From an uncultured archaeon (GTDB lineage Archaea > Asgardarchaeota > Heimdallarchaeia > Heimdallarchaeales > Heimdallarchaeaceae): a stretch of DNA of 29,356 nucleotides. The notes under the pieces were generated by a model. The model was not told the DNA's origin. It did not search any database and was given only the letters and a program-made list of their open reading frames with translations. Within the stretch, counting starts at the first letter, position 1, and the number at the start of each line of letters is the position of its first letter. Positions 32 through 23,560 of the stretch are shown in pieces. Location of the stretch: contig CAZJUB010000031.1 in assembly GCA_964549075.1 (NCBI GenBank), positions 1 to 29,356 on the forward strand, in the 5' to 3' direction. The translations under genes were made by a program, and so were the position numbers.

Positions 32-2740
32 CTTACAATCAATTTAGATTATTTAATAGAATTCGGGAATTATTATGGGATTGAAGAAGATCCTGTTGAT
101 CCTAATGTTACTAATTACGCTTTAGCTGAGATACTATATACTATAAATACGAGAACATACGTTCTTCGTAATATAATTAGTGAATACTATCTCTCTATCT
201 CAACACAACTTATGTCTCGAAATTTTAGCTCTAGAGGTGATCCTCTTGAAACCCAATATTTTGCAATTCAACAAAATTATTCTGATTTTATGGGAGAACT
301 AATAATAGATGGAAGATTACCCGAACAAAAAAATGAAGTTGTAATATCTTCATCATTCCAAAATGATAGAAACATTCAACTTGATAGTATTCTCAGTTTT
401 AATGTTAGTTCTTATCTTGGGGGGGATGCAATCGGAATACAGAATGTAAACTTTACTGTTGTTGGTGTGTATCAAGATCCTTCTAATAATTTATTAGTAA
501 GTCTAGGAAAAAAATACAATGTTCCTTCAGATCCTTTAAATATATTAAAGGAATCTATCTATGCTTTACCTGCAATTTTAACCTTCGAGAATTATTATTA
601 TACTAATTTCGAAAATGTGACAATTTATCATTTAATTGTTGATTATAATGTTCAATTTGTCTATGATTTTACTTCTATTAATATTGACAGACTTTCTACA
701 CTACTTGATGAAGTAAATGAATTGGTAGTTGAAAGTCCGCATTATTTTAACTTTGCACCTAGTAATTACTGGATGATGGTTAATGAAATAGGATGGGCTT
801 TCAGCGGTTTAAGTGGTCAAATTCAAATGACACAATTTATAGTTGTCTTTCTCTCGATCCCAATTCTATATTTAGCATTATTCCTTACTTTCGAAGTTAA
901 TGAGCTTTTCAGCAGTAGCTTTGAGCAAGAGATACGAATAATGAGCTCAAAAGGGGTGTCAACTGGAATGATTGCTTTTCTTTACTCAACTATGAAATTT
1001 TTCGAAGCCTTTTTAGCTGTTTTTCTTGGATTAGGAGTGAATCTAATCCTTCTTCCTCCGCTCCTAAAACTAAACAAATTCATAACATTTGAATCAGTTC
1101 TTACAAGTATCAAATTAGGTACAGCACCAACTTCGATGACTATTACGCTTCTCATTTTAATCATAATTTCTTTACCTCGGATAGTCAAGTTATCAACAAC
1201 AAAGAAGGAAGTTGAGAAACCACCAAGAAAATTCATCCAATTGATGAAAAACATTCGATTACCTTATTTTCTTTTAATTGTTTTTGGAGCAGGTCTCATA
1301 GCTTTGGGATATTGGCTGTTAGTATCAAGTTCAGTTGTTGTAATAATGGATCCTAGTTCAGCTTTATTAACAGTATACATCTATATTATTGGAATGGGAG
1401 TAATGGTGAGTTTACTCGGTATAGGGCTTCTTATAAGGGAATTACATAAAATTTTAATGATAGTTATAAGTAAGATATCTTGGCTAATCAACAAAAATCA
1501 ATTTACTTTTTCATTAGTTCAGGTACGTTCAGATATTAAACTCTTTAATAACACATTTCTTACTTATGTTATTCTAATAGGATTATTAATTCCTTTTACC
1601 ATGACTCCATTATTGATTCAGGATAAAGTAAAAACCCAGACCTACTTTTATGGTGGAAGTGATTTAATAGTAAACAATTGGCAATTTTATAACGATTCAA
1701 TATTAGCAGATTTAGGAGAATATGATGAAGTAATAAGTTTTACAAACATAACCCACTTAGAAGCTTCATATAGAGAATATGAAATTGAGTTTCTAATACT
1801 AAATGATACCGATGATTTTTTAGAAACAGCTTTCAAACTTCCAGATTATATGTTCTCAAATTGGAATGAAGCTATAAATAACCTTGATAAAAATACAAGT
1901 CTTTTAGCTTCTAATACATTTTCTGAATTTGTAGCAGGAGGAGAGGAAATATTCAATTTCGTAAATGATTCCTTACCAGAACCTGAGTATATTCAATTCT
2001 CGATAGAAGCAAGTTTCGATTATTTTCCTATATTCTATGATTATGGACCAAGAGGAGGTTATTCACCTTATGATTACTATTATCCTGAACCTAATCCATA
2101 TGCAACATTCGGAATTGTGATGTCACAGAGTAATTTTGATTATATTTCCTCACTAATATCGATTGATAGAATAGTTTTACAAAGATTATTGATTAATATT
2201 AAAGATTATGCAAATCAAGAAAAAGTAGCTGATAAGCTAAGTCAAGATCTTGGTTTGGAAATTAAGACTATGGACAGTGCTAGGGATACATTGTTGTTCA
2301 CACTATTTCCGTTCTACTCGTTACTTGTTGCAGAATTTGTATTTGGGATACTGATTTGTTTTGCAGCAGTAGCTTTTACAAGTCTCAGTAATCCACTAAA
2401 GATTTTACAGAAAAGACTAGTAAAACATGATGTTCTCAAAAAAATAGGAATACCAACTAATAGGATTATTTCCCTCTCTGCTCTTGAATTATTCATATCT
2501 TGTATCATACCTGGATTAATACTTGGTGGCGCTGCAGGCTATGGATTACTCAAATTATTCAATTGGCTGTTTATAGATTCAATGAGTACATATGAAGGAG
2601 GAGGTTTACCTTTCAAAATATACTTCCCATATCAAGTTATTCTGATAGTCTTTGTAGCGATTCCTGTGGTATTCTATACAATATTCTTTGTAGCAATGAA
2701 ATATAATTTTGCAAAATATATGCCTAAAAATTTGGAGTGA
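32..2740 (+). CDS. MacB/FtsX-type (type VII) ABC transporter permease with two FtsX repeats; 5' part incomplete or disrupted at the window edge
   Basis: MacB periplasmic-core motifs (GRLPEQKNEVVIS, FTVVGVY), two clusters of TM helices, and FtsX signatures (QEIRIMSSKGVS, LKKIGIP). The frame is open from 32, upstream of the ATG at 212, and that stretch (LTINLDY...YALAEILY...VLRNIISEY) aligns by eye with the paralog at 19181-23560 (MTMSLNY...IAIGEVL...VLASIISDF). Confidence 0.85.
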   Translation, partial: LTINLDYLIEFGNYYGIEEDPVDPNVTNYALAEILYTINTRTYVLRNIISEYYLSISTQLMSRNFSSRGDPLETQYFAIQQNYSDFMGELIIDGRLPEQKNEVVISSSFQNDRNIQLDSILSFNVSSYLGGDAIGIQNVNFTVVGVYQDPSNNLLVSLGKKYNVPSDPLNILKESIYALPAILTFENYYYTNFENVTIYHLIVDYNVQFVYDFTSINIDRLSTLLDEVNELVVESPHYFNFAPSNYWMMVNEIGWAFSGLSGQIQMTQFIVVFLSIPILYLALFLTFEVNELFSSSFEQEIRIMSSKGVSTGMIAFLYSTMKFFEAFLAVFLGLGVNLILLPPLLKLNKFITFESVLTSIKLGTAPTSMTITLLILIIISLPRIVKLSTTKKEVEKPPRKFIQLMKNIRLPYFLLIVFGAGLIALGYWLLVSSSVVVIMDPSSALLTVYIYIIGMGVMVSLLGIGLLIRELHKILMIVISKISWLINKNQFTFSLVQVRSDIKLFNNTFLTYVILIGLLIPFTMTPLLIQDKVKTQTYFYGGSDLIVNNWQFYNDSILADLGEYDEVISFTNITHLEASYREYEIEFLILNDTDDFLETAFKLPDYMFSNWNEAINNLDKNTSLLASNTFSEFVAGGEEIFNFVNDSLPEPEYIQFSIEASFDYFPIFYDYGPRGGYSPYDYYYPEPNPYATFGIVMSQSNFDYISSLISIDRIVLQRLLINIKDYANQEKVADKLSQDLGLEIKTMDSARDTLLFTLFPFYSLLVAEFVFGILICFAAVAFTSLSNPLKILQKRLVKHDVLKKIGIPTNRIISLSALELFISCIIPGLILGGAAGYGLLKLFNWLFIDSMSTYEGGGLPFKIYFPYQVILIVFVAIPVVFYTIFFVAMKYNFAKYMPKNLE

Positions 2741-2745
2741 TAAAG

Positions 2746-4503
2746 ATGATAATTACATGTAACGATTTAATAAAGGTCTACCACGATGAGACCACTGATT
2801 ATAAAGTAGCAGCTCTCAGAGGATTAGATCTCAAAGTAAAGGAAGGAGAGTTAGTCTCGATTATCGGTCCTTCGGGAGCTGGAAAAACTACTTTAGTGAA
2901 AATTCTCTCTGGAATTGAGCTTCCAACTAGTGGAAAAGTTATTATCAATAGTAATGATTTTGCAGTATTGGATGAATTTGAAAGAAGAGAATATCGATTT
3001 TATCATATTGGTCTTATAAATCAATTTACAACTCAGAATCTTTTTACTCATTTAACTGTAAAACAGAACTTGATGGTACCAAAGAAACTCTTCTTTCTTC
3101 CCAAAGAAGAATCTGTTAACGATGTGAATGAACTTCTAAGAGTTTTGAATTTAAGACATGTTGAAAACAACAGAGTAGAGAAACTTTCAGGTGGGGAAGC
3201 TATGAGACTTTCTATGGGAGTAGCCTTAGCTAAAAAACCAGATTTACTCTTGTTGGATGAACCTACCGGGCAACTAGATTCCAAGAATACACAAGACTTG
3301 ATTGAAACTATTAAACAAGTCAATCTAGCTATGGGAAAAACAATCTTAGTTGTGACTCATGACATCAGATACAGAAATGTGTTCGAGAAAAGTTTCGTTA
3401 TAAGGGATGGCAGACTTGTTGGAATTGGTAAAGATATTGGCAAAGATGAATTAGAATTTTTAATGCAGTCTTCTGATATTAACAGGTCTTATATGGATGC
3501 TTCTAATTTTGTGAGAATACCTGATGAAATAAAAGCAATTACAGCTTTGGGGGAAATCGTAGAATTTGACCTTCATCCTTCTAAAAAACTAGGTATTTTC
3601 TGGAATCCTGATGCAATCAATAGAGATAAAATTCTTGATATAATCTCTAATCCAATTGAGAAGTCAGAGACTGAAGTAGAACAAGTTTCTATGGAGGAAG
3701 TAGAAAAACTTCTAAGTAGAGAATTCATTTTTCCAGAAAAATCAAAACCAGTCATAAAAATCAAGGATTTGACTAAAGGTTATCATTCTAGAGCTGGATA
3801 TCATGAAGTTATCTCCAAACTCAACATTGATTTTCATAAAGGAGATTTTGTTTTCATTTCTGGTCCTTCAGGGGTTGGAAAAACTACTTTACTCAATCTT
3901 ATAGCTGGTTTAATCAAACCAGAAAAAGGACAAATAAATATGGATGGATTTTCAATTAATGATTCGTCAGAAAAAGAAACTTCATTATTTCGATTGAATA
4001 ACATTGCTTATATTACCCAACACAACAACTTGTTTACTCCTTTACAAATCAAAGATAATTTTACAATACCCTATTTATTCTCTAAAAAGAAGTTTGATAA
4101 AGAATATGGATTTTCAGTCGCTAAAGAATGTTTTATTGATCATAAGTTAGATGCTTATCCTAGTGAATTATCTGAAGGAGAGAAACAACGTGCAGCTTTA
4201 GCTTCTGCACTAAATAGAAGAACAAGTTTAATACTTGCTGATGAGCCAACAGCTAATCTCGATACTGAATTAGCTAGAAGCATTATGGATTTATTGATGG
4301 ATACAGTTAGAATTAATAATGCAACGATTATAACCTGTTCTCACGATTTAACTTTGCTCCGTCCAGGTTTTAGACACATTAGATTATTAGATGGTCAGGT
4401 ATTAGAAGATAAAAGAGTCACTAAGAAAGACTTGAAGAAAATTGTCGTAGAATATTTACAAATTGAAGAAAATCAAAAGAAGATAAAAAGGAAAACGAAA
4501 TAA
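2746..4503 (+). CDS. ABC ATP-binding protein, LolD/MacB family, with two fused NBDs and an AbrB-like insert
   Basis: Two Walker A motifs (GPSGAGKTT, GPSGVGKTT), two signatures (LSGGE, LSEGE), two Walker B/D-loops (LLLDEPTGQLD, ILADEPTANLD) and two H-switches (THD, SHD). ATG 2746 follows GGAGTGAT; GTG 2737, overlapping the permease stop, is an alternative start. Confidence 0.93.
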   Translation: MIITCNDLIKVYHDETTDYKVAALRGLDLKVKEGELVSIIGPSGAGKTTLVKILSGIELPTSGKVIINSNDFAVLDEFERREYRFYHIGLINQFTTQNLFTHLTVKQNLMVPKKLFFLPKEESVNDVNELLRVLNLRHVENNRVEKLSGGEAMRLSMGVALAKKPDLLLLDEPTGQLDSKNTQDLIETIKQVNLAMGKTILVVTHDIRYRNVFEKSFVIRDGRLVGIGKDIGKDELEFLMQSSDINRSYMDASNFVRIPDEIKAITALGEIVEFDLHPSKKLGIFWNPDAINRDKILDIISNPIEKSETEVEQVSMEEVEKLLSREFIFPEKSKPVIKIKDLTKGYHSRAGYHEVISKLNIDFHKGDFVFISGPSGVGKTTLLNLIAGLIKPEKGQINMDGFSINDSSEKETSLFRLNNIAYITQHNNLFTPLQIKDNFTIPYLFSKKKFDKEYGFSVAKECFIDHKLDAYPSELSEGEKQRAALASALNRRTSLILADEPTANLDTELARSIMDLLMDTVRINNATIITCSHDLTLLRPGFRHIRLLDGQVLEDKRVTKKDLKKIVVEYLQIEENQKKIKRKTK

Positions 4504-4603: not shown

Positions 4604-7312
4604 ATGAATTCTAAGAAGAAGATTATATTTTTCAGTTTTATTATCTCTCTTCTATTATTGCCATTAGTGTCTTACAGAAATGTAGGAGCTAATTATATAA
4701 TCAGAAATAAGGATATTATTTTACCAGATAATGAAATAAGTTTTTCACCGCCAAAATTCCTACCACCACCTCCATCAAACGGAAGCTATACGGCAGATTA
4801 TTTTGATGGTAGAGGAATAGAATCTGCAAATTTTATATTTAGTGATTTAAGTAACATATTTCCATTAGCTGAAATTCCTTCAAGTAGAATTTGGGATCTT
4901 GTAACTGTTCAATATGCGTTAACTTGCGTAGATATGTTTTTTGTCAACAGAGATCCAAATTACCTAAATAGTGGTAGAGATGCGGTTCAAACTCTCCATC
5001 TTGATATAAATGGTACTTTTATTTTAGGAGAAGATGATGGAGCTTTTTATCACCTTAATGCAGATGAAAATTTATTGTTAGTAATCATGTATAATAGATT
5101 AGCACAAGGTTTTCTCGCAGATGGAGATGCTTTTACAGCTGAATCATTAAGAAATCAAGCTAATTTACTGTTTGCTGATCTTACAAGCTTGTTCTATAGT
5201 ACAACTACAAATACAATTAATTCCACTCTCTTTTTGAGTAAATCTACTTTTGATGTTGTAGGAGTATCTCAAGGAAGCTCAGCTAAAGCAACAGGATTAT
5301 ATTTTATGGCTAATTTCATGAGCAATCAGACATCAACATATTATCCAGAGGCAAAGTTAGCTGTAGACAACTATCGAACAATAGCAAATGCAACTGTCAA
5401 CCTTCCTTCAGGAGATTTAGGATTCCTTTATAGATCTTCAGATGAAATTACTTCTGTTGAATATAATGAAGTAGCTTTACAAGGAAATATCTACCTAAAT
5501 ACAGCACTTATGCAGATAAGTAAATTTGAAGAAATAAATGGTGATTTAGGAGCTAGTGATAATTATTACAATTGGACAAATATGGGAGAAGTAACATTAA
5601 AAGAGTATTTAAAAAGTCCAACTACTAATTTGCTACATACTAAATACAACTTGGTTACTACCATTCTTGAAGATGCAGCTTTAACTTATGAAAATTGTCT
5701 CTATCTCTCTCATGCAATTGAATTCAAAAGATTTAAACTTGAACATACAGGAATAGCACCTTCATTTATTGAAGTTAGTAATCTATTTGAAGCTCTTTAT
5801 ACAAGTGTATTCAATGACCCAGACTACTTTCTTGCAGGTTTGACAAAATCTGGTACTCAACTTGATTTAGTTCCTGATATACCTCATAGTAATCCGCATA
5901 TTGTAAATTATCAAGCTATTACAATGCTGCTCAAACTCTATCCAATGAAATCGATGTTGGTTAGACCTACAGATTTGATTCCAAGTTTACCAATGATTTG
6001 TGATTGGTTCATAGATATCCCAGAAACAAGTTCTATTTTCAAGGCAAGTAACAAAACATTTTCCTTTTATTATGTATTTGATATTTCTTCTAATACTATA
6101 GATAGTATTACATTTCCCGAGAAAAAGAGATTAAACACTACTTCTCTTGACGGGGTGATACTTCAAGGTAGTCAAAAAGTAACACTAAACATTACTTCCT
6201 CTGAAGGTGGAGATCATTTTCTAATATTAAAAGTGAATTTTTCTAATTTCAACATCTTTGATTTTGATTTATTTCTTACTTTCAAAAAACTATTCCGAAT
6301 TTCGACTGAACCTACAAATCCAGAAATGACACAACTTTTAGACAAAGAATTAGTGCTTTCAGTATTCTGTGAAGATGAAATTTCTAGTTCTGTTGCTGAT
6401 GCACAAGTGACTATTTTTGTTGATATATATGAATTTACGGAAATTACAGATAATGGTGGATATGCAACCTTTTTCATTCCAATTGAGACTTTTAATTTTG
6501 CTAAACCTCCCCCAGATTTTGGTGATTACTCAAGTTATAATGCTTCGATTCATATCTCTGTTAACAAACCTGGATTTCTCAGGAAGGATATTGATAGAAA
6601 AGTCATAATTAGATTAAATGAGCTTGTTCTAGATATTAGTCCCGCTCCTGAAGGTAAAGAAGGAAGTGATTTAACTCTATACTTAGACGTGGAAACTAGG
6701 ATAGAAGCTCCTTTATTTAATATAGAAGCTACTATCAGAATAGATGGAATAGATTTCACAGATACAAGTGGATATTCAACCTTTCAATTGCCTTCAACAA
6801 TTATCATAGGAAAGGAATACTTGAAACCTAATGATTGGATTCGAGTAGATGTAACAATGGACATTCCTGGTATGTCTGTCCATACACTCAGTTTTGAAGT
6901 ATTCACTGTTCCATTGCAAACACTTGAACGTATTTACTATTGGCTTGAAATTGCATTTTCCTCCAATGTAGTCAGAGTCTTATGTTCTCTTGGTATTGTT
7001 TGGGCATTATTGTGGAGGCAATTCTCTCTTAAAATACTAAAACGACTTAGACGTTGTCCTTATTGTGGAGATATAACAAAGACAAAGTATCCTTACTGTA
7101 AGAATTGTGGTCTGAAAGATATGACTAAGAAATATAAGAAAGCAGTTCATGATAGTAAAAAGGAACCAAGGATTTTAACTAACGAACGTATGCTTTTTAG
7201 AAGAAAAGATGATAAAGAATCTAATATAAAACAAGACAATTCTAGTTTTGAAGATAATCAAAATAGTTCAAGTCTTGAATCAGATTCCTCCAAAGATGAT
7301 TATCAATTCTAG
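4604..7312 (+). CDS. Large secreted single-pass membrane protein: helical N-terminal domain, Ig-like beta domains, TM helix, cytoplasmic zinc ribbon
   Basis: Signal peptide (MNSKKKIIFFSFIISLLLLP). A helical region about aa 90-450 is followed by a beta-rich region, then a hydrophobic segment (VVRVLCSLGIVWALLW), CPYC-x10-CKNC and a charged/Ser-rich tail. Confidence 0.75.
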   Translation: MNSKKKIIFFSFIISLLLLPLVSYRNVGANYIIRNKDIILPDNEISFSPPKFLPPPPSNGSYTADYFDGRGIESANFIFSDLSNIFPLAEIPSSRIWDLVTVQYALTCVDMFFVNRDPNYLNSGRDAVQTLHLDINGTFILGEDDGAFYHLNADENLLLVIMYNRLAQGFLADGDAFTAESLRNQANLLFADLTSLFYSTTTNTINSTLFLSKSTFDVVGVSQGSSAKATGLYFMANFMSNQTSTYYPEAKLAVDNYRTIANATVNLPSGDLGFLYRSSDEITSVEYNEVALQGNIYLNTALMQISKFEEINGDLGASDNYYNWTNMGEVTLKEYLKSPTTNLLHTKYNLVTTILEDAALTYENCLYLSHAIEFKRFKLEHTGIAPSFIEVSNLFEALYTSVFNDPDYFLAGLTKSGTQLDLVPDIPHSNPHIVNYQAITMLLKLYPMKSMLVRPTDLIPSLPMICDWFIDIPETSSIFKASNKTFSFYYVFDISSNTIDSITFPEKKRLNTTSLDGVILQGSQKVTLNITSSEGGDHFLILKVNFSNFNIFDFDLFLTFKKLFRISTEPTNPEMTQLLDKELVLSVFCEDEISSSVADAQVTIFVDIYEFTEITDNGGYATFFIPIETFNFAKPPPDFGDYSSYNASIHISVNKPGFLRKDIDRKVIIRLNELVLDISPAPEGKEGSDLTLYLDVETRIEAPLFNIEATIRIDGIDFTDTSGYSTFQLPSTIIIGKEYLKPNDWIRVDVTMDIPGMSVHTLSFEVFTVPLQTLERIYYWLEIAFSSNVVRVLCSLGIVWALLWRQFSLKILKRLRRCPYCGDITKTKYPYCKNCGLKDMTKKYKKAVHDSKKEPRILTNERMLFRRKDDKESNIKQDNSSFEDNQNSSSLESDSSKDDYQF

Positions 7313-10095: not shown

Positions 10096-12195
10096 TTATA
10101 TCTTATTTCTCAACACTATCTCTCTATTATAATCTGGGATCAAAATCTCCTTATGTTCTTTTCTTAACACAGTGTTATTAGGTGTATGTACCATTATTTT
10201 TTTACCTTCTATTTGGGAAATAAATCCATTTAATGAATCTGAATTTGTATGCCCACTTATCGGTGCAGAAAAGATTTTTTGGTGGTAGCGGTTTTTAGCT
10301 ACTGGTAAAGAATTTTGTAATGCAAATCCTAAAGTATCTGGAGCTTGATATCCACATAATAAAACTCCAGTATTTTCATCGTCTTTTGTATCATCAAGTA
10401 AATTCCTTACTGTTCCACCCTGAAGCATACCATGACCTGATACAACTATGTCACCTTCTTTGAAATTGTCAATAGATACATCTTTAACAATATCATATTT
10501 GCCTTTAATTCCCATAACCTTGGAGACTTCAGCAGCTAGACCTGTTGTTTTGATATTTTTGTTCTTTGAAATTCTCAACCTTTCTAAACGTTTAATCATC
10601 TCTTGTGTTCTACCTACTGAAAAAGCTGGTATAATTAATCTACTAGAAGTTTCTGCAGCTTGAAGAATAACAGTGTTTGGATCAGTTTTCGGGGTAGGTC
10701 TATTATAATAGGTTCCATCAAAGATTGTAACGTCACTATCAGTTGGAAAATTAGCTCCTTCAAATAATTCACTGGAATCTAAAGAGAAATCTCCAGTGAA
10801 GAAAATACTCTTACCAAAAACATCGATTTTATATCCGCAACTCCCAAAGACATGAGACGCATGATATGGTGATACTTCAAAACCTGGGCTCACTTCAAAA
10901 GTTTCATTAGGTGTAAGAGTATTATGAACATTAAAAAGATTGATTAAATGAGATTTTTTGAGATAAGTAGATTGCAGCGGAGAAGCCTTTTTCTTTGTGA
11001 TTCCATTCATTTTTATTATCGAACTAGTTGATTGTAATAGTTTCTCAGTCAAAATTTTTGTTGATTGAGTTGAATACCATTGTTTTCCATTTTCAGGAGT
11101 AATCAAATAAGGTAATCCTCCTGTATGATCAAGATGTGCATGAGTAACTAGGATGGCTTTAACATACTTCAGAGAAGGATGCCACCTTGGAATAGAGTTA
11201 TTTGATACACTCATCCCATAATCAATTAAAATCGCATTGTTATCATGTTGAATCAGAATACCCATATTACCAATATTTCCGCCACCGAGGAAAGTAATAC
11301 GTATTTTTTGTGCAACTGATGGACTGGAATAAGCTTGAATTGAAGCATATTCTTTGATAAGATCTTTAGGGAATTGAGCTAACTTTTCCATTGAAGCAGC
11401 TTTCGCATTAATATTGGAAAGATGACTCTGTAAAATTGGATCTACTACAGTAGGAACTACTGGAAATTTGTTCTCTTTATATTTGTTTTCTATCTTTTTT
11501 TGAAATTCTGCCATAGAAATTTTCTTTTTTAATTTAATTTCATTACTGAGATGTTTAGAATAATAATATGCTAAATCGTTTAATAGTCTCTGGTCAACAT
11601 GAAAATCAAGATATTTCAGAAGTTTAGGAGAAATTGAACTTGCTATCTCTTCTAAATATTGGGATCTATTCTTAAGATTTGATAAAATCCTATCTACTTC
11701 TCTTCCTATTTCTTTATCTTCATCTTTCAAGATTTCTTTCGATATGTTTTTTTGAGTTATTTTGGAAAAAGTAGAAAATTTTTGTGGTTTAACTCCTAGT
11801 TTTCTTATGTATTCTAAAAACGCATAATAATTGTATTTAATTTTCTTTTTGTTTGTATAAAGCCAAAAACTGTATACTAATATTTCTTCATCTAAAATAA
11901 GATTTGTTTCAAGTTCTTGGATAACTGCTCTATAGATTTCAAAGTTTATTGCATTGAGCCAATATAGAGTGAATAAGTAATATTCTGATACAGCTGAGAA
12001 ATTTTCTGTTAATCCTACCCATGCAATATCAAAAATGTTCATAATGTTAGAATTTTGACAAATGAAATAAGGATCCTTACTAATCTTTAGATATTCTTTA
12101 CAATCTTGGTAAATTTCATGATAAGTCTTCTTAAGTTTTAAGTCTGGTTTTAGTTTCATAAGAAATTCTAAGTAATTTGTCATATCGTTTGTCAT
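10096..12195 (-). CDS. MBL-fold beta-CASP ribonuclease (CPSF73/aCPSF-related) with a roughly 290-aa unassigned N-terminal extension
   Basis: ITFLGGGNIG, LIDYG, THAHLDH, SHVFGS, FTGDF, PAFSVGRTQE, GMLQGG, GYQAPDTLG, SGH and VH motifs all lie in the C-terminal 400 aa. Confidence 0.88.
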   Translation of the reverse strand: MTNDMTNYLEFLMKLKPDLKLKKTYHEIYQDCKEYLKISKDPYFICQNSNIMNIFDIAWVGLTENFSAVSEYYLFTLYWLNAINFEIYRAVIQELETNLILDEEILVYSFWLYTNKKKIKYNYYAFLEYIRKLGVKPQKFSTFSKITQKNISKEILKDEDKEIGREVDRILSNLKNRSQYLEEIASSISPKLLKYLDFHVDQRLLNDLAYYYSKHLSNEIKLKKKISMAEFQKKIENKYKENKFPVVPTVVDPILQSHLSNINAKAASMEKLAQFPKDLIKEYASIQAYSSPSVAQKIRITFLGGGNIGNMGILIQHDNNAILIDYGMSVSNNSIPRWHPSLKYVKAILVTHAHLDHTGGLPYLITPENGKQWYSTQSTKILTEKLLQSTSSIIKMNGITKKKASPLQSTYLKKSHLINLFNVHNTLTPNETFEVSPGFEVSPYHASHVFGSCGYKIDVFGKSIFFTGDFSLDSSELFEGANFPTDSDVTIFDGTYYNRPTPKTDPNTVILQAAETSSRLIIPAFSVGRTQEMIKRLERLRISKNKNIKTTGLAAEVSKVMGIKGKYDIVKDVSIDNFKEGDIVVSGHGMLQGGTVRNLLDDTKDDENTGVLLCGYQAPDTLGFALQNSLPVAKNRYHQKIFSAPISGHTNSDSLNGFISQIEGKKIMVHTPNNTVLRKEHKEILIPDYNREIVLRNKI

Positions 12196-12279: not shown

Positions 12280-13173
12280 CTAATCTTCCTTAGTATCACT
12301 CTCAAGTAAGCTACTAAAAGCATCTCTTAGTTCATCTTGTAATGCTTCTTTCATCACTTTAGTTGATTTAGCTGGTACTGCTGGTGCAGACGATGGAGTG
12401 AAATCTTTTTCTTCTTCTTCGTCTTCTGTGAGTCTAGAAGCTCTTTTAGCTAAAGCATCTTTTACTTCCATATTGAGTGCCATAGATGCAGGCATAGAGC
12501 CTCCTCCTCCTACTGCAGCTTGCCTTTCTTGTCTGTGCTTCTCTGGATCGACTTTTGTAAGTCCTGCTCGAATATCTTGGATATCATCAGCACTTACACC
12601 AAATGGACTGAAAGAAGCTGGTGCTGGACCTCCTGCTGGGTCTCCTAATCCATCCGGTCCTGAAGTTGGTTCTGGTGCTTTCTGTAAATTTGCTGCAGCT
12701 TTTAACAAATCAGCACTACTGATACCAGCACCAGTTGCTCCTTGTGCTCCAGAAGGAGCTGGCATTGCACTCAAATCTGGCGCACCTGAATTTGCACTCA
12801 CTGCAGCAGTAAGATTTGGTGCGCTAGGTGCAACTGATAAGTTCGGTGCACCGATAGGTCCTGAATTTGTTAAATTAGGCGCTGCTGCTGAAACTGTTGT
12901 AGGCGCTGCTGCAGGAGTTGCTGCAGGAGCTGCTGAACGAACAGATAAAGTTGGTGCTACACTTGGTGAAGCTGCTACTCCTAATGCTCTTTCCACAGCG
13001 CTTATCCTCATATCTAAAGTATTAATATAATCCTCCATCCTCTCTGTTGATTTAACCATTATCGCTCCGAAATTTTCAATCAATCTAGTAAGCTTCATTA
13101 TGGCTTTCTTAGAGGGTTCCGAACTACCTGATAAGAGGCCATCTAGATAATCATCAATTGACACATGTATCAT
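12280..13173 (-). CDS. Pro/Ala-rich protein with N-terminal coiled coil, two WH2-like repeats and a VCA-like C-terminus (candidate actin regulator)
   Basis: Long ORF with GGAG 5 nt upstream of ATG 13173 and a TTTTATA box further upstream. Repeats GISSADLLKAAANLQKA and GVSADDIQDIRAGLTKV are followed by ALNMEVKDALAKRASRL-TEDEEEE. The CDS is secure; the function is inferred. Confidence 0.6.
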   Translation of the reverse strand: MIHVSIDDYLDGLLSGSSEPSKKAIMKLTRLIENFGAIMVKSTERMEDYINTLDMRISAVERALGVAASPSVAPTLSVRSAAPAATPAAAPTTVSAAAPNLTNSGPIGAPNLSVAPSAPNLTAAVSANSGAPDLSAMPAPSGAQGATGAGISSADLLKAAANLQKAPEPTSGPDGLGDPAGGPAPASFSPFGVSADDIQDIRAGLTKVDPEKHRQERQAAVGGGGSMPASMALNMEVKDALAKRASRLTEDEEEEKDFTPSSAPAVPAKSTKVMKEALQDELRDAFSSLLESDTKED

Positions 13174-13175
13174 GT

Positions 13176-13202
13176 AAACTCCAAAAATGTGATATAAAAA
13201 CT
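13176..13202 (-). promoter_or_regulatory. Putative TATA box and Shine-Dalgarno-like motif upstream of the WH2-like gene
   Basis: The minus strand reads AGTTTTTATATCACATTTTTGGAGTTTACATG: TTTATA about 20-26 nt and GGAG 5 nt before the ATG. Confidence 0.4.
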
Positions 13203-13248
13203 CTATGTTATTCCTCAAAACAAAGGCTAATGCGTAATTCTTGAATTC

Positions 13249-17435: not shown

Positions 17436-19175
17436 TTAGTTGTTATTATTTTCTTCGATCTGAAGATATTCTTTCAAAATCATTCTCAACGATTGCATGG
17501 TTACTCTTGAATCTTCTACGATTTTTCCATCTGATATTCTGATATGCCTAAAACCAGGTCTAAGTAAAGAAAGATCATGTGAGCACATGATGAAGGTTGC
17601 ATGATATTCTTCTACTGCATCAATTAAAACATCCATCAAAGCTCGAGCTAAATCTGAATCCATATTTGCTGTAGGTTCATCAGCTAGCAAAATTTGAGTC
17701 TTTCTACTAAGAGCTAAAGCTAAAGTTGCTCGTTGTTTCTCTCCTGCACTTAATTCGTCAGGATATGAATCCAGTTTGTGCACAATATGACATTCTTTTG
17801 CTACAGCTTCTCCCATTTTAGGATCATATTTCTTACCCAAGAAAAGGTAAGGAATTAACAAGTTATCTCTTAACTCAATTGGTTCAAATAAACTGTGATA
17901 TTGAGTAATATAAGCTGTATTTGCTAATCTAAAATCAGATCTAGCTGTATCATCAGCATTGCTTATTTTAAATCCGTCTACGGTGATCTCTCCTTCATCA
18001 GGAGTAAGTAATCCAGCAATAAGATTCAACAGAGTGGTTTTTCCCACACCTGAAGGTCCAGAAATAAAAATAAAATCACCTTTCTTGATATTCAAATCTA
18101 CACCTTTAATCACTGGATAATTCTTTCCAAAGATTCTATAACCTCTATGAACACCTTTTATTTTTACAATTGTTTTTGCTTTTTCACTGTGTTTGAATTC
18201 TCGTTCAAATAGATAATTAAGGTCTTCAAAAGATAATTCATCTACTTTATCAGAATACTCTCCAGGAGGTTGTTTCAGAATATTGTAAACCTCCTCTTTT
18301 GTAACTAAATCTGGATTCCACATCATAGCAAGCTTCTTGGAAGGATGAACATCAAATTCTGCTACATCTCTGATTGCAGCTGATGATTTGATTTTATCAG
18401 GTATCTGGATAAAATTGGAAGGATCTATATAAACAGTGTTCAGAACTGAAGCATCTTTTAAGAAATCTAATTGAGATTTATCAGCTTCATGTCCAACTCC
18501 TACTAGTCTACCATCTCTGATAAGGAAACTTTTCTTGAAAGCATTACGATATCGTACATCATGGGTTACTATCACCATGGTAGTTCCTAATTCTTCATTT
18601 ACTTCTTTCAGGTTTTCAATAATTTCGAAAGTGTTGGTACTATCAAGTTGTCCTGTAGGTTCATCAGCCAGAATAAATTGAGGTTGTCGTGCAAGTGCAA
18701 CTGCAACAGATAGTCTCATAGATTCACCACCACTGAGCTTCGCTGCTTTATTATTTTTAACGTGTTGAAGGTTAAATAGTGTCAGAAGCTCTTCCATTTC
18801 TTTTCTAGAAATTTCTCTTGGAGTGTGCTTCATCTTCATTGGCATAAGTAGATTATCTCTAGCAGTTAGGTTAGAAAAAAGGTTTTTACTAGTAAATTGG
18901 TTAACAAGCCCTATGTGGTCATATCTAAACTTTCTTCTTTCTTTTTCATTTAATCTATCTAGTTGTACACCACCAATAAGAATCAATCCACCTGTGGGAA
19001 CATCTGTTCCAGAAAGTAGGTTGATTAAAGTGGTTTTTCCTGCTCCTGAAGGACCGATGATGGAGACTAACTCTCCGTCAGCTACATCCAAATCAAGTCC
19101 TCTGAGGGCTGAAACCTTATAATCAGTAGTTTTGTCATGATAAATCTTTATTAAGTCTAAGCATCTTATTCCCAT
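17436..19175 (-). CDS. ABC ATP-binding protein, LolD/MacB family, with two fused NBDs and an AbrB-like insert (paralog of 2746-4503)
   Basis: NBD1 has GPSGAGKTT, LSGGE, ILADEPTGQLD and THD; NBD2 has GPSGVGKTT, LSAGE, LLADEPTANMD and SHD. It is colinear with the 588-aa protein over its full length. ATG 19175 follows GGAGTGAT; GTG 19184 is an alternative start. Confidence 0.93.
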   Translation of the reverse strand: MGIRCLDLIKIYHDKTTDYKVSALRGLDLDVADGELVSIIGPSGAGKTTLINLLSGTDVPTGGLILIGGVQLDRLNEKERRKFRYDHIGLVNQFTSKNLFSNLTARDNLLMPMKMKHTPREISRKEMEELLTLFNLQHVKNNKAAKLSGGESMRLSVAVALARQPQFILADEPTGQLDSTNTFEIIENLKEVNEELGTTMVIVTHDVRYRNAFKKSFLIRDGRLVGVGHEADKSQLDFLKDASVLNTVYIDPSNFIQIPDKIKSSAAIRDVAEFDVHPSKKLAMMWNPDLVTKEEVYNILKQPPGEYSDKVDELSFEDLNYLFEREFKHSEKAKTIVKIKGVHRGYRIFGKNYPVIKGVDLNIKKGDFIFISGPSGVGKTTLLNLIAGLLTPDEGEITVDGFKISNADDTARSDFRLANTAYITQYHSLFEPIELRDNLLIPYLFLGKKYDPKMGEAVAKECHIVHKLDSYPDELSAGEKQRATLALALSRKTQILLADEPTANMDSDLARALMDVLIDAVEEYHATFIMCSHDLSLLRPGFRHIRISDGKIVEDSRVTMQSLRMILKEYLQIEENNNN

Positions 19176-19180
19176 TTTTA

Positions 19181-22100
19181 TCACTCCAGGTTCCTTGGTA
19201 GATATTTCGCATAATTCGCTTTCATAGAGAAGTAGAATATGGTCATAAATAATAGTGGCGCTATAATATACGCAATTATTAGTGCAGCGATATTAAAATC
19301 TATCAAGTAATGAATACCTGCATAGAAGTAATTCTTAACTACTACATTAAACAGAACAATCAGACCAAAAGCTGCCCCGGTGCCTATTACAGCTCCTGGA
19401 ACCACTCCTGCAAAGAATGTCTCTAGCATCGTTAATTTGATTATCCGTTTAGTAGATATTCCCATTTTCTTCAATCTGTCATTCTTATTTGTTCTCTGTT
19501 GTAAGATTTTCAAAGGATTGCTGATGCTTATGTATACAATTGCGATCAGACAGATTAATATTGAAAGAACAAATTCTGCTGCTATAATATTAAAGAATGG
19601 GAAGTTTTCAAATTTTATCTGTTCTATCTCTTCAGCTGAACTTTTTACTGTCAATCCAAGTGCATCTTGTATCTGCTCCTTGACTTGAGCGTCATCATAT
19701 CCTTCACTCACTTTAATTAAAATTCTATCATTAACATTTTCTCCTGAAGGACCGGGATGAATTATTGGCTTGATTATTGCATAATTGCTTTCTGTCATTA
19801 ACATAGCTGCAATTCTGGGGGTTTTTCCTGCAACATACTCTCCAACAGTGTAGAATACGGGTAAATATTCAAATTCTCCTTTAATAGTGTAAGTTGCAGA
19901 TAATTGAGGAGCTACTTGTGTAAAAGTAAATGTACTTGCAAAATCTGCAAAATCTTTATCAAAGACATAAGTGACCATCATAGTACTATTTCCTTCTAAT
20001 TGTGAGATACTATTGTCCCAATTTTTGAACATCCTACTAGGTGGTTTATATGACGTAGCCAAGTATTCCGTTATATTCTCAATAAGATAAACTTGAACAA
20101 CATCATAATTTACCATTGCTCCTTCAATTTCTCTCACAAGTGCTGTACTTTCTACACCAGTTACATTCCTTAGTATAGGAAGCACTTCAGAGACATTCAA
20201 ATTCAGCCAATTATTGATGTATAAATCAGCTCCATTGTAGAAATAAGTATCTTTATCAAAATTCAACTGCATAGAAGTTGGACTTATTATAGAGGGTAGC
20301 GTTATTCCTATAATGAGTAGAAATGCTAAATAGATATTTTTGAATAATTTAATGTCTGATCTTATTTCAATTAAACTAAATGTACTTAATGATTTTCTAA
20401 TCCTCCAAGATATCTTACTTATCGCTATCATCAGTATAGAGAATAAGTCTTTAAGTAATAGTCCTAATCCTAAGAAGACTAGTAAAACTCCTAGACCTGC
20501 TAAATAGATGAAAATCATAAGTATAGATATACTAGAAGAATCTCCTATGTTTGCGTACAATAATTGGTACAATGCTAGAGATCCCCATGCAATTCCTCCT
20601 CCTGCTACAATAAAGATAATTGGAGGTAATCGTATCTGTTTGAATAAAGTAGCAATTCTTTGGGGAGTTTTCTGGAAACCTATTCTTTTTGTCTTAGACA
20701 TTTTCCAAATTTTTGGTAGTGCTATAAAAATTAATCCAAGCAAAGTCACAGCAATTGCGACACCCACACCAGAAAATTTGAGAGCTGTTCGAGGTCCATT
20801 GAAGGTAATGAAAGAATCAACTCTTAGAAGAGCAGGAGATAAAGCTAAAGAGATTCCGAATCCTATACCGACAGCAAAGATGGATTCTATAAACTTAAGT
20901 CCGATGTAATTTGAAGCAATCCTCGTTGATTTTACACCTTTAGATTGGAAAATTTCAATCTCTTGCTCTAAACTTTGTGTATAAAGTTCGTTTGTCTCCG
21001 CAATCAGAAACATTGCAATGTAAATAATTGGCATGGCTAAAGTGAAAAACAAGAAAATTGAAGAATTGAGTCTAGGTTCAAGGATATCCAACATTGCTGA
21101 TAACTCTCCTGAATAATCCCACTTTGAATTACGGTAAATAGGTTCAAAACTAAAATCTGTATCTTGCCTTCTTTTAAGATCAGCATTTTCTTGACTTAGC
21201 TGAGCAAGCTGATTTGGAGACATCTTACTGAAATCATATTTAAATTGAACACTTGTTTCAACAAACATATAGTACGGGTATAGCCCGTCAAGATTATCCC
21301 AAGCTAAATCTCCAAAAGCTACTATAGCTCCAAACCAACCTTGTAAAGAATCGACTAAATCCAAAGGTAAGTCATAATTTTCCCAGAAGTTTGTATAGTT
21401 GGATCCAGTTGGAAGATCATAAGCTCCAACGATTTTTAAAGTTACATTAGTGTCTCCAGGATTAGTATTATAAGAATTAATTTGTGATCCCCATAAGGTG
21501 AAACTATCATTCACATCCAAATCTAGTAGGCCATCTGTTTCAAGAAGCTCATTACTGACTATGACTTCTCCTTTAGCTTCTGGCATCCTTCCTGCTACAA
21601 GAAGCTCACTGATAGGAGCTGAGTAATTGTTTGATATACTGATGTAATTTTCGTTAAAATAATGGGTTCCATTTATGTTAGGATTATCAATAGTAACATA
21701 AAATGCTGACATATATTCAAAGTCGGAAATAATACTAGCTAAAACAGGATAATTCATATAAAATTCTGTCAAAACCTCTCCAATAGCTATTTTCTCAAAA
21801 TTCTTTAATAAAGGATTTCTTGAACCAAAACTGGATGTATCATAATTTAATGACATGGTCATACTTGGTGTTCCATTATCTTGTAAATCTATTCTAGCTG
21901 AATACTCATTAAGTAAAACACCTTGTTTTGAACTATAAACTGTTGTACTTGTAATAACAATAACTGCAAATATAGTCATACCAATAAGATTCATCAAATG
22001 TCTCTTCTTATTAGTTTTAAAAAGCGTGAAAACAGCGGATGTAGAGTTAGATATCCAATACCATAAATTCGTAAATAAAAGAAATAATTTTGATTGATTT

Positions 22101-23560
22101 CCATTAAAGGAACGTTGAAAGAATTTTTTCAAATTGATATAACTGACTTTTACTCGTTTACGGAATATAACTAAAGTTATGCCTACAACAGCTAATATAG
22201 CTACTATGTAAACGCCAGCTGAAAGCCAGAAAATATATAGAGCGCTGTAAATATAGATCTGTGATACGTGTAAATCGAAGAATGATCCTAAATTGACAGC
22301 AGTTGAAACATAATAACCTATCAGATTATTTTTATTAAGTTTTACACCTTGAATCTCATCGTTTTCTACAGCTGTTGAGTGTACATAGATACGCTCACCT
22401 GTTAAGGTTTCTTGTAAACTGAACGAATGCAATTTGGTGTTTTTAGGAACGTTATAGATGTCAAATTTCTCTACTTCATATATTCCTGTGTAATTGTCTC
22501 TAATTATGGAAATTGTTGATTTCAATTTGTCTCCTTTGAAAAATTCATCATATTCTAAATATGGTACAGAACTAAAGATGTATTCCGTATAACCGTCTTT
22601 TTCTTGAATAGTAAAGCTATCATAATCAAAAATTCCAAAATTAACTGATGTAAAGTTATCGAAAGTTGTTGTCTCATATTCAGTGTATCTTAAGGTGTAT
22701 AGGATTGAATTTCTTGCTAATGCAAGATTGAATACACCATCTTCAGTAACAAAGAAACGGGGATCAAATCCTCCTTCGTGTAAAACCATAGTATTAGTTA
22801 TGTTAGATACTCCTGTAGTAGCATTAGCAGCTGTAGTGATGTAAAAATGGTCAGATACATATTGGTAAATGTATTGATAACCTGTATAGACCATACCATT
22901 TTGATAATACATTTCCAGCATATAGTCAAACTCCTCATCTGCAACCCAAGTTGTTCTAACTTCTTCTGTATACCATAGATTTGTTTCATTGTCTCTATAG
23001 ATTTTATAGAACTGGTATGCTGTATCTGCGTTTTCTGAAGTCGGAGGGAAATTTTCTATAAATGTTAAGAACATATCAAAATGTGTGGGACCATCTTGAA
23101 AGACTCTAATATGCGGGTAATTAGCTCTAGAGTTATATTCATAAAACTCAAAATCAGTTCCTCCATCTTCAGGTGTCCAAGTATACATACGGAAGAAAGT
23201 TATATCATAGAAAGCATGATAAGCGTAGAGTAGAGCAATACCACCTTCTACTTCATAAACTTCAAAAAAGTCTAGAGGATATCTTTCTACTATAACTAAA
23301 TCAGACTCGTCATTAACTACATGAATTATTTTAAACGTATCATTGTCATATGTTATCTTAGCGAAAAAATGAAAATTATCAAATTCGTCAAATATCATCC
23401 TAGTTTCTATATTTTCTTCCTCCCCAGTTCTTTCTGTAAGTAGAAATAGTTTTTCACTTGAATCACTAGTTGCAGCTCTAGTATTTTTTACAAGAAAAAT
23501 CGAACTAGTAATAAATAACATGATGATTGTAACTACTGTAATTTTCTTTTTTATGTTCAT
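19181..23560 (-). CDS. Giant MacB/FtsX-type ABC permease with an additional N-terminal extracellular beta-rich domain
   Basis: Signal peptide, about 410 aa of aromatic/beta-rich sequence, a TM helix, then a MacB-like core (GRMPEAKGEVIVS, LKIVGAY, QEIEIFQSKGV, GADLYI, LKKMGIS). It ends YAKYLPRNLE, like its paralog (FAKYMPKNLE). Confidence 0.88.
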   Translation of the reverse strand: MNIKKKITVVTIIMLFITSSIFLVKNTRAATSDSSEKLFLLTERTGEEENIETRMIFDEFDNFHFFAKITYDNDTFKIIHVVNDESDLVIVERYPLDFFEVYEVEGGIALLYAYHAFYDITFFRMYTWTPEDGGTDFEFYEYNSRANYPHIRVFQDGPTHFDMFLTFIENFPPTSENADTAYQFYKIYRDNETNLWYTEEVRTTWVADEEFDYMLEMYYQNGMVYTGYQYIYQYVSDHFYITTAANATTGVSNITNTMVLHEGGFDPRFFVTEDGVFNLALARNSILYTLRYTEYETTTFDNFTSVNFGIFDYDSFTIQEKDGYTEYIFSSVPYLEYDEFFKGDKLKSTISIIRDNYTGIYEVEKFDIYNVPKNTKLHSFSLQETLTGERIYVHSTAVENDEIQGVKLNKNNLIGYYVSTAVNLGSFFDLHVSQIYIYSALYIFWLSAGVYIVAILAVVGITLVIFRKRVKVSYINLKKFFQRSFNGNQSKLFLLFTNLWYWISNSTSAVFTLFKTNKKRHLMNLIGMTIFAVIVITSTTVYSSKQGVLLNEYSARIDLQDNGTPSMTMSLNYDTSSFGSRNPLLKNFEKIAIGEVLTEFYMNYPVLASIISDFEYMSAFYVTIDNPNINGTHYFNENYISISNNYSAPISELLVAGRMPEAKGEVIVSNELLETDGLLDLDVNDSFTLWGSQINSYNTNPGDTNVTLKIVGAYDLPTGSNYTNFWENYDLPLDLVDSLQGWFGAIVAFGDLAWDNLDGLYPYYMFVETSVQFKYDFSKMSPNQLAQLSQENADLKRRQDTDFSFEPIYRNSKWDYSGELSAMLDILEPRLNSSIFLFFTLAMPIIYIAMFLIAETNELYTQSLEQEIEIFQSKGVKSTRIASNYIGLKFIESIFAVGIGFGISLALSPALLRVDSFITFNGPRTALKFSGVGVAIAVTLLGLIFIALPKIWKMSKTKRIGFQKTPQRIATLFKQIRLPPIIFIVAGGGIAWGSLALYQLLYANIGDSSSISILMIFIYLAGLGVLLVFLGLGLLLKDLFSILMIAISKISWRIRKSLSTFSLIEIRSDIKLFKNIYLAFLLIIGITLPSIISPTSMQLNFDKDTYFYNGADLYINNWLNLNVSEVLPILRNVTGVESTALVREIEGAMVNYDVVQVYLIENITEYLATSYKPPSRMFKNWDNSISQLEGNSTMMVTYVFDKDFADFASTFTFTQVAPQLSATYTIKGEFEYLPVFYTVGEYVAGKTPRIAAMLMTESNYAIIKPIIHPGPSGENVNDRILIKVSEGYDDAQVKEQIQDALGLTVKSSAEEIEQIKFENFPFFNIIAAEFVLSILICLIAIVYISISNPLKILQQRTNKNDRLKKMGISTKRIIKLTMLETFFAGVVPGAVIGTGAAFGLIVLFNVVVKNYFYAGIHYLIDFNIAALIIAYIIAPLLFMTIFYFSMKANYAKYLPRNLE

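Follow-up and report, generated by a model that had tools for sequence, protein, structure and literature searches.

How Asgard archaea start their actin filaments is an open question, and one on which a single gene from an uncultured archaeon of the family Heimdallarchaeaceae may bear. The window analyzed here is the whole 29,356-nucleotide contig CAZJUB010000031.1 (assembly GCA_964549075.1), and the gene in question lies at 12280..13173 on its (-) strand, encoding a protein of 297 amino acids, P0001. Working from the DNA letters alone, the original prediction had seen in it an archaeal counterpart of the actin nucleation-promoting factors WASP, WAVE and WASH. In the parts of the Asgard literature that were covered, no actin nucleator is described, profilins and gelsolins are the only actin regulators named (PMC13716822, PMC9433394), and WH2-like motifs are described only inside gelsolins (PMC9433394; bioRxiv 10.1101/2025.11.30.690169 = PMC13716822). 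The same parts of the literature hold no free-standing WH2, VCA (WH2 or V, central, acidic) or CCDC53-like protein and no nucleation-promoting factor in archaea, while their supplements might list the family among predicted eukaryotic signature proteins.

Is P0001 such a factor? It is best described as a conserved, uncharacterized and mostly disordered multivalent scaffold of linear motifs. No feature tested places it in the WH2 or WASP families, and it would at most work like a tandem-WH2 or VCA protein. Resemblance makes actin the best single guess for what its repeated motifs bind, a tentative guess that we hold to be possible rather than probable. The evidence neither confirms nor refutes the WASP-like or tandem-WH2 interpretation.

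An AlphaFold2 (AF2) monomer model of P0001, built on 34 sequences, has low overall confidence (mean predicted local distance difference test, pLDDT, 56.6; predicted template modeling score, pTM, 0.20). It places helices at residues 6-14, 20-63, 153-163, 195-204, 210-222, 229-250 and 268-294, with pLDDT below 50 at 67-109, 111-133, 137-149, 165-189 and 252-267. The N-terminal domain (residues 1-66; 12976..13173, on the (-) strand like all other parts of the gene) combines the short helix 6-14 with the long helix 20-63 in a block with pLDDT of 77-87. A coiled coil had been predicted at this end; the long helix is borne out by the model, and its coiled-coil nature is suggested by its length and confidence together with weak matches to coiled-coil chains in a PDB sequence search (best E 0.032). 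The linker that follows (residues 67-149; 12727..12975) is rich in Pro, Ala, Gly and Ser, carries APNL at 98, 109 and 118 and PSAP at 116, and has the low pLDDT that agrees with the disorder expected of it.

Beyond the linker lie two copies of a short unit, each a helix followed by L-x-K-[AV]. Unit 1 (residues 149-173; 12655..12729) has a short amphipathic helix, 153-163, ending in LQKAP (motif ISSADLL..LQKAPEP at 151-169), and unit 2 (residues 191-215; 12529..12603) has a short helix, 195-204, ending in GLTKVDP (motif FSPFGV..GLTKVDP at 188-210) and succeeded by helix 210-222. Next comes a basic amphipathic helix (residues 229-250; 12424..12489; motif ALNMEV..AKRASRL at 232-248) with the pattern L233-x3-V237-x3-L241, K243 R244, L248, which had been likened to the C element of VCA proteins. 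The acidic run likened to the A element is seen in the sequence at residues 249-258 (12400..12429), with EDEEEE at 250 and KDF at 256-258. The protein closes with a further helix and an acidic end (residues 268-297; 12283..12372; AF2 helix 268-294; motif KSTKVM..SLLESD at 269-293). N-terminal helix, linker, the two LQKA and LTKV units, KR-bearing helix and acidic run are therefore all present in the order that the original prediction gave them. The reservations attached to it also hold, as P0001 has no polyproline tract and no Trp, and a tail of 39 residues follows the acidic run.

The reading frame listed for the window extends further upstream, over 12280-13218 (-), giving 312 amino acids from a TTG start at 13218, whereas the 297 residues of P0001 plus stop codon begin with the ATG at 13173. 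The 34 orthologues in the alignment are 48-94% identical to P0001, and their starts, which read MIHVSIDD... or MSIDD..., coincide with the Met of P0001 or sit three residues later. This supports the ATG at 13173, and with it the coordinates and the length of about 297 residues first proposed. The gene stretch has a G+C content of 0.39, against 0.29-0.35 in its surroundings, which is consistent with the Ala, Pro and Gly content of the protein. Two 151-nucleotide contigs of a salt-marsh metatranscriptome (a single RNA run) are identical to parts of the gene, a weak sign that it is expressed.

The same alignment indicates that the parts matter. Its N-terminal and C-terminal helices are nearly invariant, with S5 D7 D8 Y9 L10 D11 and S42 T43 E44 R45 M46 E47 D48 fixed in the former and S270, T271, M274-Q279, E281-R283, A285-S287 and L289-D293 in the latter. 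Between them, invariant positions form short islands: A109 P110 N111 S113 of an APNL repeat in a linker with variable, indel-rich flanks; L163 K165 A166 P167 of unit 1; G204 L205 K207 of unit 2, where at least 90% of the sequences retain V208 and D209; and E236 K238 L241 R244 of the basic helix. F258 of the acidic run is likewise retained in at least 90%, while the PSAP at residue 116 is not conserved, although some relatives have several copies. Invariant motif residues amid linkers that vary and carry indels indicate that the short motifs are under selection. Loss of the motifs among orthologues had been named as a ground for abandoning the prediction; all the parts it described are conserved in the 34 sequences.

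A collection of 5.8 billion proteins contains 56 homologues of P0001 at E<=0.01, none with a precomputed Pfam domain and all of them unnamed or called 'hypothetical protein', from Heimdallarchaeota, Heimdallarchaeaceae or the Asgard group. The family profile finds 13 matches among 1.84 billion cluster representatives; the last of these, P0186, a repeat protein of 572 amino acids, was taken as a spurious match of composition. Contigs chosen as one genome per species yield 24 loci (22 Heimdallarchaeota, one Promethearchaeati and one 'uncultured archaeon'). In the ESM Atlas, the whole of P0001 leads to unnamed archaeal clusters at 0.83-0.84, and residues 1-70 searched against named clusters lead to nothing.

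A wider view was obtained from a phylum set of 400 Asgard genomes and a class set of 83 genomes (Heimdallarchaeia), in which families are labeled f3, f4, f5, f7 and f20. With the full-length profile, a six-frame search of the phylum set is positive in 33 genomes, including 26 of the 30 from the host's own family, and gives weak matches in three other families. The relatives carry from one to four tandem units, ending in LKKV, LKKA, LQKA or LKSV. In the sister family f4, L044 (L044:341-1525 (+); 395 amino acids) has three units, LKKV, LKKV and LKSV, followed by a C-terminal acidic stretch and helix; L046 (L046:187-1344 (+); 386 amino acids) has three, ending in LSKA, LKKA and LKKA; and the unit counts of L077, L078 and L079 are three, three and four. 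L047, of 312 amino acids, comes from a closed genome in the host's own family and has the three units LQKA, LQKA and LKKV. Single units occur in L073 (f3) and L076 (f7), each followed by a Phi-x3-Phi-x3-Phi helix (Phi, large hydrophobic residue) that bears an RRR cluster, and by an acidic stretch, which in L076 contains DDFD.

A gapless alignment of seventeen units, unit 1 of P0001 among them, has the consensus G..S...I..A..SLKK.PP.E, and successive unit Leu positions lie 30-42 residues apart. In the class set, a profile of the units is positive in 39 genomes, namely the host (G000), 25 of 30 from its own family, 3 of 3 from f3 and 10 of 12 from f4; at E<=0.01 it finds none of 22 genomes in f5 and none of 12 in f7. 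These matches fall in the present gene family, except for one host protein of 907 amino acids and one open reading frame (ORF) of 161 amino acids, so that no fusion of the units to an actin-binding or MIT domain is seen in these 83 genomes. The linker varies alongside the units. Its APNL or GPNLGG repeats number three in P0001 and about 14-15 in some relatives (in L044, about 15 repeats of GGPNLGGAPS type), with the Pro-Asn-Leu core kept while the rest drifts; the repeat looks like a second linear motif.

The terminal helices reach much further than the units. Profile A4, built from the first 75 residues in nine diverse members, matches 199 of the 400 Asgard genomes, mostly once per genome, and eighteen of these matches were inspected. 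Among them are mini-forms of 135-190 amino acids (L050, L051, L070-L072, L075, L083-L084 and L086) that consist only of the N-terminal helix and a C-terminal helix (ELKxLFxxRRK type) joined by a Pro/Ala/Ser linker, without any units. A second group is made up of the unit-bearing proteins of Heimdallarchaeia. In f20, the largest family (76 of 135 genomes), where the matches to A4 are weak (E 1e-4 to 1e-6), the module forms the C-terminal tail of Arf-like GTPases of 412-431 amino acids (Pfam Arf 4e-21 to 3e-22), as in L087:497-1741 (+), L088:1037-2278 (-) and L089:836-2131 (-). This Arf-like fusion is widespread in Asgard archaea (226 proteins at E<=1e-10). Co-precipitation with Lokiactin is reported for the ARF GTPase UYP48373.1 (PMC13716822); that GTPase is not among the 120 matches listed for the fusion, and the observation carries no weight here. 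Every relative examined, mini-forms included, ends with the motif LQxELxxxFS. The N-terminal and C-terminal helices are best read as the ancestral core and the units as a Heimdallarchaeial insertion. In P0001, helices 229-250 and 268-294 each resemble a copy of the mini-forms' C-terminal helix, a likeness judged by eye and without statistics.

Only one other host protein has related units, as judged by both a position matrix and a hidden Markov model (HMM) of the units. This is the 907-residue protein just mentioned, encoded outside the window at G000:C15:25993-28815 (-) (L092:3994-6714 (-)), counted from its ATG, with a Lys-rich N-terminus. Windows of this protein at 28-residue spacing take ranks 3, 7, 11, 25 and 26 of 1,014,370 by the unit matrix, and by eye it contains about eight tandem repeats of 28 residues, one of which is close to unit 2 and ends in LKKV. 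The other repeats replace the basic pair (LEPV, LESV, LVSV, LKPI), which disfavors a strict requirement for an LKKT-type sequence. No Pfam family is found in the region of about 600 residues after the repeats. Immediately upstream of the gene, on the same strand, are genes for an Arf-family GTPase, a PAS-domain protein and a second Arf-like protein.

What might such a scaffold do? As a Heimdallarchaeial elaboration of the Asgard core of N-terminal long helix, flexible linker and C-terminal amphipathic helix, P0001 would oligomerize through its N-terminal helix, and the Pro/Ala linker with its PNL repeats may act as a flexible spacer or a secondary ligand site. The tandem units would be motifs that fold upon binding and cluster several copies of one partner, for which monomeric actin is the candidate. 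WH2-like units joined by a coiled coil could then make an Arp2/3-independent nucleator or a factor for monomer delivery, while the basic helix and acidic run might serve regulation or amount to one more unit in degenerate form. In the most far-reaching version, prokaryotes would have in this protein their first free-standing factor for actin assembly: monomers of Heimdallarchaeial actin would bind to a compact WH2-like array, clustered by the coiled coil, that nucleates filaments or feeds their growth; the eukaryotic C and A elements would have a forerunner in the basic helix and acidic run, which would engage the host's actin-related and ARPC4-like proteins; and the module, fused to Arf-like GTPases in other Asgard lineages, would link small-GTPase signaling to actin before eukaryotes. 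We regard this version as unlikely, though worth stating.

The actin reading comes from resemblance to known systems. Tandem-WH2 nucleators and coiled-coil elongators with WH2-like motifs are exemplified by Spire, Cordon-bleu, VopL/VopF and Ena/VASP. P0001 resembles these systems in having tandem short motifs about 30-40 residues apart, a putative oligomerizing helix and a Pro-rich stretch, but has no detectable sequence relationship to them. The order of its parts, from Pro-rich linker through the units and the L-x3-V-x3-L helix with KR and Leu to the acidic run with Phe, also mirrors the account of VCA regions in section 11 of PMC3298513. As in the WASP family (WASP, WAVE/Scar, WASH) treated there, an N-terminal assembly helix and Pro-rich disorder precede helices followed by L-x-K-[AV], a Phi-x3-Phi-x3-Phi helix with KR and a further Phi, and an acidic run that includes an aromatic residue. 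Unlike that family, P0001 has no WH1, WHD or WAHD domain, fits neither the WH2 pattern nor the Pfam WH2 model, has a linker between helix and Leu that is 2-3 residues too short and an acidic run that is internal, and belongs to a host with no demonstrated Arp2/3 complex. Within Asgard archaea, a WH2-like LKKT-type motif of two-domain gelsolins (2DGels) contacts actin in crystal structures described in parts of PMC9433394 and PMC13716822. The units share with it an L-basic-basic-[TV]-like tetrapeptide; the gelsolin motif, however, is a linker element of a folded protein, and the host 2DGels read FLKHF at that place and bear no other likeness to the units.

A host genome without actin homologues had been another ground for abandoning the prediction, and that ground does not apply either. 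The host genome (3.23 Mb in 217 contigs, 89.7% complete) encodes an actin of 378 amino acids (G000:C18:14983-16092; Pfam Actin 448 bits; 57-62% identity to eukaryotic actins), as the prediction had supposed, together with a divergent second actin-family protein (L002:1285-2742; 485 amino acids, 191 bits) and two two-domain gelsolins. The Pfam profilin model has no match in the host and none in any control genome either, and is uninformative. The actin gene lies about 15 kb from a cluster of genes for the endosomal sorting machinery ESCRT (C18:30453-33751), on the same contig C18 and outside the window. This cluster holds two ESCRT-III paralogues, then a Vps4-like AAA ATPase that includes an MIT domain (C18:31810-32976; 52.6 bits), and further genes.

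Formal comparison with WH2 and WASP-family features nevertheless gave results that weigh against actin as the partner. Pfam was applied to 62 distinct family proteins (P0001, the 34 orthologues, a set of 36 proteins, 7 relatives and 18 wider relatives, which overlap). The WH2 model (PF02205) is listed for none of them at E<=10 (E<=0.1 for the 18 wider relatives), a weak negative, since the model is short and the filters of HMMER drop most matches above E of about 0.1. P0001 matches no Pfam family at E<=10, WH1, WHD and WAHD1 included, and the 34 orthologues, for which 18 families are listed, have none of these three either. A 25-residue profile of the 17 units, searched against 177,635 distinct PDB sequences at E<=10, finds no WH2 or actin-binding chain, its best match being a centrosomal protein at E 0.41; the family profile and the L047 protein likewise find no WH2-bearing or actin-binding chain in the PDB at E<=10.

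The published motif fares no better. According to section 11 of PMC3298513, large hydrophobic residues are conserved at three places of the WH2 helix, [VILM]-[LM]-x-x-[IL]-[KRQ], L-[KR]-[KR]-[VTA] comes after it, and the implied spacing from helix to Leu is 5-6 residues, longer in fungal WASP and in WASH. Letting the linker vary over 2-10 residues does not help: this pattern occurs in none of the 34 orthologues, 24 relatives and 3493 host ORFs. The unit helices keep two conserved large hydrophobic residues (I/L and A-L/I) instead of three, and only 2-3 residues separate the last of them from the Leu: R-A-G between the last helix Ile and Leu205 in unit 2, S-S or A-N in the f4 units. The predicted helices 153-163 and 195-204 extend up to the Leu, leaving no place for the WH2 linker of 4-5 (up to 10) residues. 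Neither LQKA nor LTKV of P0001 fits L[KR][KR][VTA], which occurs in 7 of the 34 orthologues, at unit 2, and in 11 of the 24 relatives, inside a unit in seven (L044, L046, L047, L073, L076, L078 and L079). In the Lys-rich host proteome, LKKV-type tetrapeptides occur in 240 of the 3493 ORFs.

The C domain is described in the same section as three large hydrophobic residues three apart, a doublet or triplet of Lys or Arg, and a terminal large hydrophobic residue, a pattern found in P0001 at 233-248, in 9 of the 34 orthologues and in 2 of the 24 relatives. It is unspecific, being present in 622 of the 3493 host ORFs (18%); joined to an acidic run within 12 residues it is found in 19 of them, the gene for P0001 included, and in 8 of the 34 orthologues. 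At 249-258, the acidic run lies inside the protein and has no Trp; 39 more residues come after it, with a nearly invariant helix among them. The Phe alone does not disqualify it, as Phe replaces Trp in the acidic motif of some eukaryotic WASP-family proteins (PMC3298513, section 11). The presence of both terminal helices in mini-forms without any units argues further that the core function is independent of the units, and no actin-related gene neighbors P0001 in the window, as had been noted from the start, or its relatives elsewhere.

One Pfam family does emerge. CCDC53 (PF10152), the family of the small coiled-coil WASH-complex subunit WASHC3, matches 10 of the 62 proteins at E 2e-5 to 0.09, with L047 above the curated cut-off of 24.6 bits (25.5) and L051 just below it (23.5). 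The shared arrangement is a long N-terminal helix followed by a Pro-rich linker, and the alignments place profile position 5 at residue ~22-25 in 8 of the 10, and position 19 at residue 38 in L050 and L051. On the other hand, 52 of the 62 proteins, P0001 among them, are unmatched, the 18 wider relatives give no CCDC53 match and instead match assorted coiled-coil families, and no genome of the 400 has a match above the cut-off in a six-frame search. The matches are best taken as the likeness of one long helix, a lead and not a family assignment.

Several explanations compete with actin, and one of them starts from the core instead of the units. A coiled-coil module spread across Asgard archaea and tied to Arf-like GTPases could make P0001 an adaptor for a non-actin partner or for membranes, whose C-terminal amphipathic helix binds a membrane or small-GTPase system while the units recruit another protein. 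We consider this a serious contender, plausible if still somewhat short of probable. The distribution of the N-terminal profile, mostly once per genome, the mini-forms reduced to N helix, linker and basic helix, and the Arf-like GTPase tails of f20 all speak for it, as do the position of the L092 gene directly downstream of two Arf-family genes and a PAS gene and the loss of the basic pair in its repeats. Yet this explanation names no partner, the C-terminal helix of P0001 ends acidic and not basic as in the mini-forms and Arf-like fusions, the f20 matches are of the weak kind given above, and the likeness of the module among its forms was recognized by reading the sequences. At the other extreme, the pattern might be chance in a low-complexity protein, with short helices that have no specific ligand and merely populate a spacer or condensate-forming region. 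It was picked by eye out of a very large scan, and all statistical comparisons with known motifs were negative; but motif residues stay invariant while the flanking linkers drift and gain or lose residues, and unit copy number varies across families while the unit sequence is kept. This makes chance highly improbable, the least credible of the explanations weighed here.

Two further alternatives keep the units as specific ligands and differ in what they bind. PSAP is of the motif type that binds ESCRT-I in eukaryotes, and MIM1 (MIT-interacting motif 1) has the consensus of an acidic start and three Leu or Ile at positions 1, 5 and 8, then Lys or Arg, and binds the MIT domain. An ESCRT-linked scaffold, in which the units bind an MIT domain and PSAP-type linker motifs add a contact to ESCRT-I, would account for the spacing of the units without invoking a shortened linker, and by eye the units fit the C-termini of host ESCRT-III about as well as they fit WH2, a further point against actin. 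These paralogues end in acidic-Leu/Ile-x3-Leu/Ile-x2-Leu-Lys/Arg-Lys, with the same 1-5-8-9 spacing as the units, and one of them has Gly before the last Leu, like unit 2. Most f4 units have the MIM1 spacing. The host has the Vps4-like MIT protein, PSAP is present in P0001 and in several copies in relatives, and MIM1-like C-terminal helices of Asgard Vps2/24/46 are reported to dock on the MIT domain of Vps4 (PMC7240154). The two ESCRT-III C-termini rank 474 and 2993 of the 1,014,370 genome windows by the unit matrix, but these ranks are modest, a search with the unit HMM at E<=10 misses the ESCRT-III ORFs, and statistical support is no better than that for WH2. Known MIM1 motifs form the C-termini of Snf7-domain proteins, whereas the units are internal and tandem in a family with neither a Snf7 domain nor linkage to the ESCRT cluster on C18; unit 1 of P0001 has Ala at the middle hydrophobic place, and PSAP is not conserved among orthologues. 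We judge this scaffold improbable on balance.

More doubtful still is a true VCA-type factor, a special case of the actin reading that casts the units as carriers of actin and the basic helix and acidic run as activators of an Arp2/3-like assembly made from the host's actin-related and ARPC4-like proteins. The V, C, A order is the published one and P0001 fits the general C-domain pattern (PMC3298513, section 11); F258 is conserved, with the precedent of Phe for Trp cited above, and weak CCDC53 matches reach the cut-off once. An ARPC4-like ORF is present in the host (L003:1480-1971; 30.8 bits, cut-off 22.2), and such genes occur in 70 of the 400 Asgard genomes, including 25 of the 30 of its own family. 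Against this, f4, with the most WH2-like units (LKKV/LKKA), has the gene in none of 12 genomes, which counts against actin more generally as well. The ARPC4-like gene and the one divergent actin-family protein are all that was detected of such an assembly, ARPC1, 2, 3 and 5 not having been searched for, the acidic run is neither terminal nor equipped with Trp, the C pattern recurs across the host proteome, and CCDC53 is absent where P0001 and the wider relatives are concerned. A VCA mechanism in the strict sense thus appears very unlikely.

The surroundings of the gene do not decide among these explanations. Of 24 loci, 20 have threonine aldolase upstream and 21 a 699-residue beta-CASP protein downstream, while relatives from other families adjoin genes for tRNA-intron endonuclease, BacA, DNA methylase and metabolic enzymes. 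The neighborhood gives no functional clue, since the loci are close kin and the neighbors housekeeping. In the window, the downstream gene (10096-12195 (-)) encodes the metallo-beta-lactamase/beta-CASP protein, whose first ~300 residues have no Pfam match. Three long ORFs of the window, at 212-2740 (+), 4604-7312 (+) and 19181-23560 (-), encode 842, 902 and 1459 amino acids, without a Pfam match at E<=1e-4; between the 842- and 902-residue ORFs lies a double ABC-ATPase gene (2737-4503), and the 1459-residue ORF abuts another (17436-19184). In two sister-family genomes, a divergent tubulin/FtsZ-family gene lies about 5 kb from a relative of P0001 (L063:1458-2804 (-) and L064:1191-2522 (-); Pfam Tubulin 32.5 and 34.7 bits, cut-off 33), with pyruvate kinase and an ORF of 665-671 amino acids in between.

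What is new in this family is the series of one to four tandem units in the relatives of P0001 and a core of N-terminal and C-terminal helices found in 199 of 400 Asgard genomes. It is also a tractable object, as a soluble fragment of 150 residues with two to four candidate motifs can be set beside natural variants with one to four copies or no units at all. If P0001 binds actin, WH2-based nucleation, and perhaps the VCA logic with it, would predate eukaryogenesis. If the partner should prove to be the MIT domain of Vps4 or another protein, the family would still represent an uncharacterized Asgard-wide module, fused in some lineages to Arf-like GTPases.

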